This document shows, one piece after another, positions 60,001-61,154 of a DNA stretch of 61,193 nt (position 1 is the stretch's first letter; the number at the start of each line of letters is the position of its first letter). The DNA comes from an uncultured Methanosarcinales archaeon (lineage in GTDB: Archaea > Nanobdellota > Nanobdellia > Woesearchaeales > CAIVOO01), in assembly GCA_964485195.1 (NCBI GenBank), contig CAZAIK010000003.1, forward strand, positions 64,800 through 125,992. The letters run 5' to 3'. The position numbers were made by a program.

Positions 60001-61154
60001 ATCCGGTGTACGCGGCTTTCATAATGAAAATGAATGAAAGCCGTGATCCAGTACTGGTTAATTACTGAACCACTTCACTTGAATGTGTGAATGTGACATG
60101 TTGCATTAAAATTCCGACTTCGTTCCCTGTCGAAATTTTTACTGCATGATAATCCCGATTCCCTCGGTTTTATCTGGTTTTGATGGGCTGTTGGGCAGCG
60201 AAAATCAGAGATTTTCTGGTCCGCCGGCTCCAGTGCTGATGTTTAACCTTTGTTAAACGTCGCTTTTTGCTTTGAAACTGGACCCGTCGGGATTTGAACC
60301 CGAGACCCCCGCTTTGCAAGAGCGGTGCTCTACCACTGAGCTACGGGCCCGCTGTCAATCTGAGCAGCGGCTTCGTGGCGGAGCGCCGCTTTTTCGTGAG
60401 TGTGAATATATGAATACTGAGTTTTGGATATCAGTTTTACAATAAAATATTGTAAAAGGAGGTGATCCATCCGGCAGGCAGCGTAAACTCGCTTTGCTCG
60501 TTTACTGGTCTGCGGATGTCTTTCGACATGTTTTTCCGAACGGATTTTCATCCTTTTTTATTGTAAAAGGAGGTGATCCATCCGCAGGTTCCCCTACGGA
60601 TACCTTGTGACAACTTGCTCCGCCTCACCAAGCTTGAATTCGTCACAGCCAAAAAAGCTGCGCCTCATTCAAACTCAGCTCGGATGAGATGATGGGCGGT
60701 GTGTGCAAGGAGCAGGGACACATTCACCAGAAGATAGTGACTTCCGATTACTAGGGATTCCGACGTCACGAGGGTGAGTTGCAACCCTCGATCTGTACTT
60801 GGATAGGGTTTAGAGGCTTAACTTCCGCTTTCGCGGTCGTATCCCATTGTCCCTACCATTGTTGCGCGCGTGTAGCCCAGAGCATTCGGGGCATACAGAC
60901 CTACCGTAGCCTGCACCTTCCTCCTCCTTACGAAGGCAGTTTCCATAGTGTGCTCGATCGCCATCTCTGGCTCGCTAGCAAGTATGGATACAGGTCTCGC
61001 TCGTTACCAGACTTAACTGGACACCTTACGGCACGAGCTGACGACGGCCATGCACCTCCTCTCGGCTCGTTAGGCAAGCCCTTCAGACTGGCCTTCATCC
61101 TGCCGTCGGCCCTGGTGAGATGTCCGGCGTTGAGTTCAATTAAACCGCACGCCG

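Follow-up and report, generated by a model that had tools for sequence, protein, structure and literature searches.

Replacement of the G1405:C1496 decoding-site pair by A:U in the 16S rRNA of an archaeal genus, a variant that recurs in other lineages

The last part of the 61,193-nt stretch of DNA analysed here (the window) carries an rRNA operon on its minus strand. It comprises the 3' part of a 16S rRNA gene, a tRNA-Ala gene in the 16S-23S spacer and a full-length 23S rRNA gene (Table 1). The top of helix 44 lies in this 16S part and includes the pair G1405:C1496, which is regarded as an unvarying element of the decoding site and as a constant target for aminoglycoside-resistance methyltransferases. 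The 16S part belongs to the Rfam family RF01959 at 602.7 bits (gathering score 50), and the 5' half of the gene, on another contig, reaches 728 bits. Three Rfam pieces occur in the assembly and sum to one 16S gene, whose two parts each lie at a contig end (C2:71-1002, model positions 4-828, and C3:125378-125986, model positions 858-1467). The first-pass annotation had called this the only 16S gene; that holds for the assembled pieces, which add up to one gene, and goes too far for the genome as a whole, since the assembly consists of 32 contigs and an additional unassembled copy is possible. Because a full-length 23S gene and a tRNA-Ala gene adjoin it, the operon is intact, which argues against a decayed locus. 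The G+C content of the window is about 42%; over some 10 kb at 45001-55000 it is 0.335-0.348, against about 0.42-0.44 elsewhere.

Table 1. Positions of the rRNA operon, of the decoding-site bases and of the methyltransferase gene discussed in the text.
Feature	Position	Strand	Basis or remark
23S rRNA gene, full length	window 56380-60002	(-)	RF02540, 2498.2 bits, model 1-2987
tRNA-Ala (TGC), 16S-23S spacer	window 60279-60350	(-)	Rfam tRNA 74.1 bits; ARAGORN
16S rRNA gene, 3' part (RF01959 model positions 852-1478)	window 60568-61193	(-)	602.7 bits, E 1.9e-177; 5' side cut at contig/window end
Helix 44 top, 3' strand, C1491-G1504 (CAAGUUGUCACAAG)	window 60604-60617	(-)	includes A1492/A1493 at 60616, 60615
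U1496 (Rfam consensus C), pairs with 1405	window 60612	(-), A on + strand	Rfam structure line and ruler count
Helix 44 top, 5' strand, C1399-U1409 (CCGCCCAUCAU)	window 60689-60699	(-)	Rfam alignment, sequence
A1405 (Rfam consensus G)	window 60693	(-), T on + strand	Rfam alignment and ruler count
FmrO-family methyltransferase, 275-aa open frame	G000:C11:3124-3651 (locus L338:1483-2310), outside window	(-)	

Two bases that face each other in this 16S part depart from the consensus. The minus strand reads GCACACACCGCCCAUCAUCUCAUCC and GGAGCAAGUUGUCACAAGGUAUCC where the RF01959 consensus has CACCGcCCGUCA and AAGUCGUAaCAAGG. The two columns concerned are paired in the model and carry upper-case G and C, as the first-pass annotation had described; here they hold A and U, both within the range 60601-60711 first given for the feature, and the alignment gives them no non-canonical mark. 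The E. coli positions 1405 and 1496 had been assigned to them by way of the 1392R/1406R primer site, and this numbering agrees with the bases described in the RmtC-30S paper, in which G1405 forms a Watson-Crick pair with C1496 and precedes U1406, C1407, A1408 and C1409, the same order as the consensus G-U-C-A-c. The central claim of the earlier reading, an exchange of G:C for A:U with the pairing kept, is borne out by the sequence and by the paired columns of RF01959.

The swap is shared within the genus and is held by contigs from two studies. In an alignment with relatives, the genus mate (G401) has A1405 and U1496; G1405 and C1496 stand in three family mates (G403, G404 and G405) and in another 12 sequences from the order. 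The same double change is found in an unrelated genome of the order (G346), so that the taxonomic pattern first reported for the swap stands. Contigs from two runs of one study, which is possibly the source (X1 and X2), cover 60582-60872 and 60582-60998, and so both bases, with no differences, as had been stated. A 563-nt contig from another study (X3), 98.6% alike, covers 60568-61131 with seven substitutions and one deletion, none of them at 60612 or 60693. Since an error at both partners, in two species and two studies, is not expected, A1405:U1496 is a real, compensated G:C to A:U swap in helix 44. An error of assembly or binning, a chimeric sequence or an rRNA pseudogene in decay is hardly credible as its source. 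In favour of such an artefact, the 16S gene lies in two pieces at contig ends, chimeras arise easily in the rRNA regions of metagenome bins, and conserved stretches draw their depth from many organisms. Against it, both partners of the pair are altered together, the genus mate shows an identical pair, both bases are kept in error-free contigs of two runs and in the 98.6%-alike contig of the other study, the match to Rfam scores high and the adjoining 23S gene is complete.

A survey of public genomes, one per prokaryotic species, revealed the A form in many other lineages. We scanned these genomes with motifs and then read the 3' strand. TTGCACACACCGCCCATCA occurs at no fewer than 116 loci, which by record title belong mostly to DPANN archaea and to a few CPR bacteria. 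Among those listed, the 3' strand is readable at 112; U1496 stands at 111 of them, a count that keeps six loci saying little about archaea, and C1496 at one. These six (L132, L143, L197, L211, L214 and L236) lie in bins titled as bacteria, carry AAGTTGACACAAGG after long h44 spacers of 104-214 nt and may be SSU genes of organelles or of other organisms, on contigs placed in the wrong bin. A complete scan for the bacterial-type TTGTACACACCGCCCATCA returned 64 loci, with titles that name Cardinium and other Amoebophilaceae, Candidatus Amesbacteria and other CPR, sponge-associated lineages, Dehalococcoidia and Acidimicrobiales; the 3' strand could be followed at 58, of which 56 carry U1496 and two C1496. 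Taking both scans together, the 3' strand can be read at 170 of the A1405 loci listed; U1496 stands at 167 of these and C1496 at the remaining three (L138, L253 and L259).

Covariation at the two positions is close to complete. All 15 G1405 sequences that we aligned have C1496, and the wobble combination G1405.U1496 was found at only 13 loci in a complete scan. In the A form both partners are off consensus and a standard pair is kept, and the state of 1405 predicts that of 1496. One of the 13 G.U loci (L325, CP178306.1:3980911-3981141) is titled Escherichia coli strain ECGI0523; a single 16S locus there combines G1405 with U1496 (AAGTTGTAACAAGG), a natural wobble at the hygromycin-resistance position.

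Shorter patterns proved less specific. The 15-mer ACACACCGCCCATCA matched at least 121 stretches of genome contigs, mostly by chance outside rRNA, and longer patterns were used instead. Among those listed, 21 of its matches have TG[CT] upstream: two are our own, four lack the 3' motif and 15 are foreign 16S loci, all of which read AAGTTGT among the matches listed. The 14-mer CACACCGCCCRTCA likewise gives chance matches in larger genomes.

Within phyla, the A form ranges from rare to normal. In the phylum of the present genome, the site is held by 152 of 401 genomes, a sample that includes a few unpublished ones (G242, G395, G359 and G321), which support no claim of their own. Five of the 150 matches listed there (156 in total) have the A form: this genome (G000), G341, G056, G346 and a dubious fifth, G370. 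Clean A1405 is thus held by four of the 152 genomes with the site among the matches listed, or about 3% A:U. The A forms fall in families f1, f29, f89 and f113, the first three of which also hold G-form members. The dubious case sits on a 1.5-kb contig (G370:C18) with an aberrantly short h44 and is probable contamination, the same genome having a normal G form on contig C7. In a second archaeal phylum, that of G413 (locus L126, titled Candidatus Iainarchaeum), the site occurs in 86 of 215 genomes and is A in 86 of 88 matches. A sample of 301 genomes from a non-DPANN archaeal phylum, that of G631 (locus L138, titled Methanomassiliicoccales), gave no genuine A1405 apart from the chosen centre, among the matches listed. 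Of the 150 matches listed there, 140 are of the G form and all ten A forms are chance matches that lack 16S context; a further 32 matches exist beyond these.

The exceptional rarity implied by the first-pass annotation, which had judged it within one order, does not survive these counts: A:U stands at 167 or more loci of public species genomes, and in one DPANN phylum the A form is the normal state (84 of 86 genomes with the site). With the same swap in many small-genome microbes and as the rule in one phylum, A1405:U1496 is a rare but recurrent variant and not a one-off. By taxonomy labels, the A:U pair has several independent origins, in this phylum, in another archaeal phylum and in bacteria. 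Judged from these alignments and scans, the 1405:1496 pair is very conserved but not invariant, and appears to be replaced almost only by A:U.

Comparison with the other natural cases sets the present genus apart in age and context. The Candidatus Iainarchaeum phylum has the same two bases in the same pair, and the surveyed loci with Iainarchaeum titles read AAGTTGT on the 3' strand. There the pair is old and phylum-wide, whereas in the present genus it is recent, genus-level and lies inside a G:C lineage; rRNAs of that phylum also have A1499, where the rRNA studied here has the C1499 of its class. The bacterial A1405:U1496 lineages (titled Cardinium/Amoebophilaceae, Candidatus Amesbacteria, sponge-associated Porisulfidus and others) have the same pair in a 16S context of U1393 and A1499.

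Mutants made in the laboratory bear on how such a swap could arise. A mutant series of E. coli at C1404, G1405, C1496, G1497 and U1498 is said to go back to Cunningham et al. in 1993. Laboratory mutants of 1405 and 1496 are single or engineered changes in bacteria, whereas in the present archaeon both bases have changed, and have done so in nature. According to Pfister et al. (2003), as cited in PMC11317432 (Table 1) and PMC8004914, the C1496U change alone, at the same nucleotide as here, leaves M. smegmatis viable and alters its hygromycin B susceptibility, the MIC rising 32-fold. The viability of this mutant makes a G.U intermediate plausible, as does the excess of 13 G.U over 3 A.C loci, a small and phylogenetically non-independent sample. 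The order of events may have been C1496U first, giving a tolerated G.U wobble, and G1405A second.

The decoding site of this genus departs from the consensus at two further places, which the first-pass annotation had passed over. Position 1499 (window 60609) is C, where Rfam has an upper-case A (GUCACAAGG against GUAaCAAGG). C1499 is common to 19 of the 20 relatives' sequences that we aligned, the exception being the aberrant G370:C18 fragment, and it therefore characterises the wider group rather than one genome. It lies within what we take to be the 1492R primer site. The second departure is U1409 (60689) facing C1491 (60617), a pyrimidine-pyrimidine opposition that Infernal marks as non-canonical and that has c-g in the consensus. 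This mismatch closes the A-site loop and is also present in the genus mate, in G038 and in G081; most relatives have A1409-U1491. In bacteria, disruption of 1409:1491 gives aminoglycoside or hygromycin resistance (PMC11317432, PMC8004914).

An exact 26-nt direct repeat stands at window 60448-60473 and 60559-60584, 111 nt apart. The repeated unit is the 3' end of the 16S rRNA (the anti-Shine-Dalgarno region plus eight spacer bases), duplicated downstream in the 16S-tRNA spacer. The segment has a stable fold (z-score -5.8), and a 1099-nt contig from run X1 spans it without a difference. In the related strain X3, 27 other letters replace 60434-60565, which marks the insert as strain-specific.

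Positions 1405 and 1496 are, according to published work, direct drug contacts or known resistance sites, through the O6/N7 contact at the one and the MIC of C1496U at the other. Ring III of arbekacin hydrogen-bonds both O6 and N7 of G1405 (PMC12104382). That G1405 is the target of m7G methyltransferases, as the earlier reading had noted, is in keeping with abstracts and papers on Arm, Rmt and Sgm, and the Arm/Rmt literature describes m7G1405 as blocking all 4,6-deoxystreptamine aminoglycosides. Methylation by ArmA, Rmt and Sgm (FmrO family, PF07091) alters the major-groove face that 4,6-disubstituted aminoglycosides contact, and the base change seen here would likewise do so; the former is enzymatic methylation of a G, whereas the latter combines a base change with a compensating partner and would remove the enzyme's substrate. 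To judge from the structures, A at 1405 would cost the ribosome the O6 carbonyl that ring III of these drugs binds, and the guanine that FmrO, Arm and Rmt enzymes methylate at N7 would be gone from A1405 rRNA.

These contacts raise the possibility that the swap was selected for lower binding of decoding-site antibiotics (4,6-disubstituted aminoglycosides and hygromycin B), with intrinsic insensitivity as the result. Besides the ring III contacts at O6 and N7 and the blocking effect of m7G1405, the 32-fold rise in hygromycin B MIC caused by C1496U alone points this way, as does the U1409.C1491 mismatch that the genus carries at a second pair whose disruption confers resistance in bacteria. However, an A at 1405 retains N7, the closest relatives live with G:C, and the lineages that share the swap come, by their titles, from very different habitats (insect endosymbionts, sponge symbionts, groundwater CPR and DPANN). 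We regard selection by antibiotics as improbable. Targeted literature searches for a natural A1405:U1496 variant or its drug phenotype returned no paper.

The genome encodes a homologue of the very enzymes that modify G1405, a gene that the first-pass annotation did not mention. This FmrO-family protein was detected at 73.7 bits in a genome search in which none of 14 control genomes had a match; it scores 74.5 bits against Pfam PF07091, where the cut-off is 27, and aligns with 16S methylases of known structure, RmtC and Sgm among them (E 8e-14 to 5e-11). Pfam and PDB matches span residues ~93-274, and the first ~90 residues match nothing. S103, D153, K200 and S236-G237-K238 align to S107, D160, K204 and S239-G240-R241 of RmtC (8ghu_A), and the counterpart of RmtC K236 is R. 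In RmtC, S107 and D160 are assigned to SAM and K204 is directed at N7 of G1405. The residues of the present protein that correspond to these are conserved both in the four other A1405 lineages of the phylum and in G1405 relatives.

The gene lies beside DUF2203 and AP_endonuc_2 genes, and its orthologue in the genus mate is intact, 62% identical and in conserved synteny. Between the two species its dN/dS (NG86) is 0.16, against 0.125 and 0.129 for two neighbour genes, values that are approximate because dS, at 1.84, is saturated. By this measure purifying selection acts on the gene although the genus does not have the textbook substrate, position 1405 of its own 16S rRNA being A. Since that position is A, m7G1405 does not explain why the genus retains FmrO.

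FmrO is widespread in this phylum and scarce where A1405 is fixed. It occurs in 229 of the 401 genomes (the sample with the few unpublished ones), which makes it dispensable in many G1405 lineages; the four clean A1405 genomes all have it. In the Candidatus Iainarchaeum phylum it occurs in seven of 215 genomes, of which five are confirmed A1405. Five other A1405 genomes that we tested (G413-G417), among them an Amesbacteria (G415) and a Cardinium (G416) genome, have no FmrO match. All told, archaeal A1405 lineages with an intact FmrO, including catalytic lysine and SAM site, number at least five: the present genus, G346, G341, G056 and the G429-G433 group. To our knowledge, the target of an archaeal FmrO has never been mapped. 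Its conservation where the textbook target is absent implies that in this lineage the protein has a substrate other than G1405 or a role that does not involve methylating that base. It is close to an even matter, and for us a little short of probable, that DPANN FmrO has a conserved, G1405-independent function, which could be another rRNA or tRNA target, N7-methylation of adenine or methylation-independent 30S assembly.

The two observations could also be directly linked. On this account, G1405 relatives make m7G1405; in the present genus the modification disappeared together with the base, and the enzyme either has been kept for a second role, at another target or in ribosome assembly, or modifies A1405 itself. 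Its presence in 229 of the 401 genomes sampled from the phylum and in all four clean A1405 genomes fits such a link, as do catalytic residues that are alike in A and G lineages, the purifying selection in an A1405 genus, and the near-absence of the gene where A1405 is fixed, with five of the seven carriers there being A1405. PMC3655853 lists an Sgm-like 16S methyltransferase homologue as a Nanoarchaeota signature gene, which adds to this side. Yet 57% versus 3% across two phyla amounts to a single phylogenetic contrast, four of four is not significant against a background of 57%, and G413-G417 have A1405 and do without FmrO. We consider a causal tie between swap and enzyme rather unlikely, if clearly less so than selection by antibiotics.

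The reading that we hold to be highly probable is an ordinary compensatory swap at 1405:1496 in an ancestor of the genus, probably by way of G.U, with FmrO either acting on something else than G1405 or serving a role that needs no methylation of that base. The change from G:C to A:U would have arisen in that ancestor with Watson-Crick geometry kept and the decoding site presumably still working; A:U being isosteric with G:C, decoding should be little affected. For the neighbouring 1404:1497 pair, PMC3900107 stresses backbone contacts with the P-site codon. The kept pairing and the recurrence of the swap suggest that it is near-neutral. It seems to have originated repeatedly, mostly in small-genome and symbiotic lineages, an enrichment that is an impression from record titles, and to have become fixed in one DPANN phylum. 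Drift towards A:U in small populations could plausibly account for the seeming surplus in symbiotic lineages with small genomes.

The 1405:1496 pair is thus replaceable in nature, almost only by A:U (at least 167 A:U and at least 3 A.C loci, with 13 G.U loci). Lineages with A:U form a natural test set in three respects: for the part that base identity at 1405:1496 plays in decoding and drug binding, for mismatches of universal primers at these sites (presumably 1392R/1406R and 1492R), and for the role of archaeal FmrO when its textbook target is missing. Set among them, the present case is a recent example, at the level of a genus, of a variant found widely in DPANN and here and there in bacteria. 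For a single genome it is a modest curiosity; its general interest lies in the near-perfect covariation and in an FmrO that persists without G1405. If FmrO does act independently of G1405, the origin of the clinical m7G1405 resistance enzymes would be read differently.
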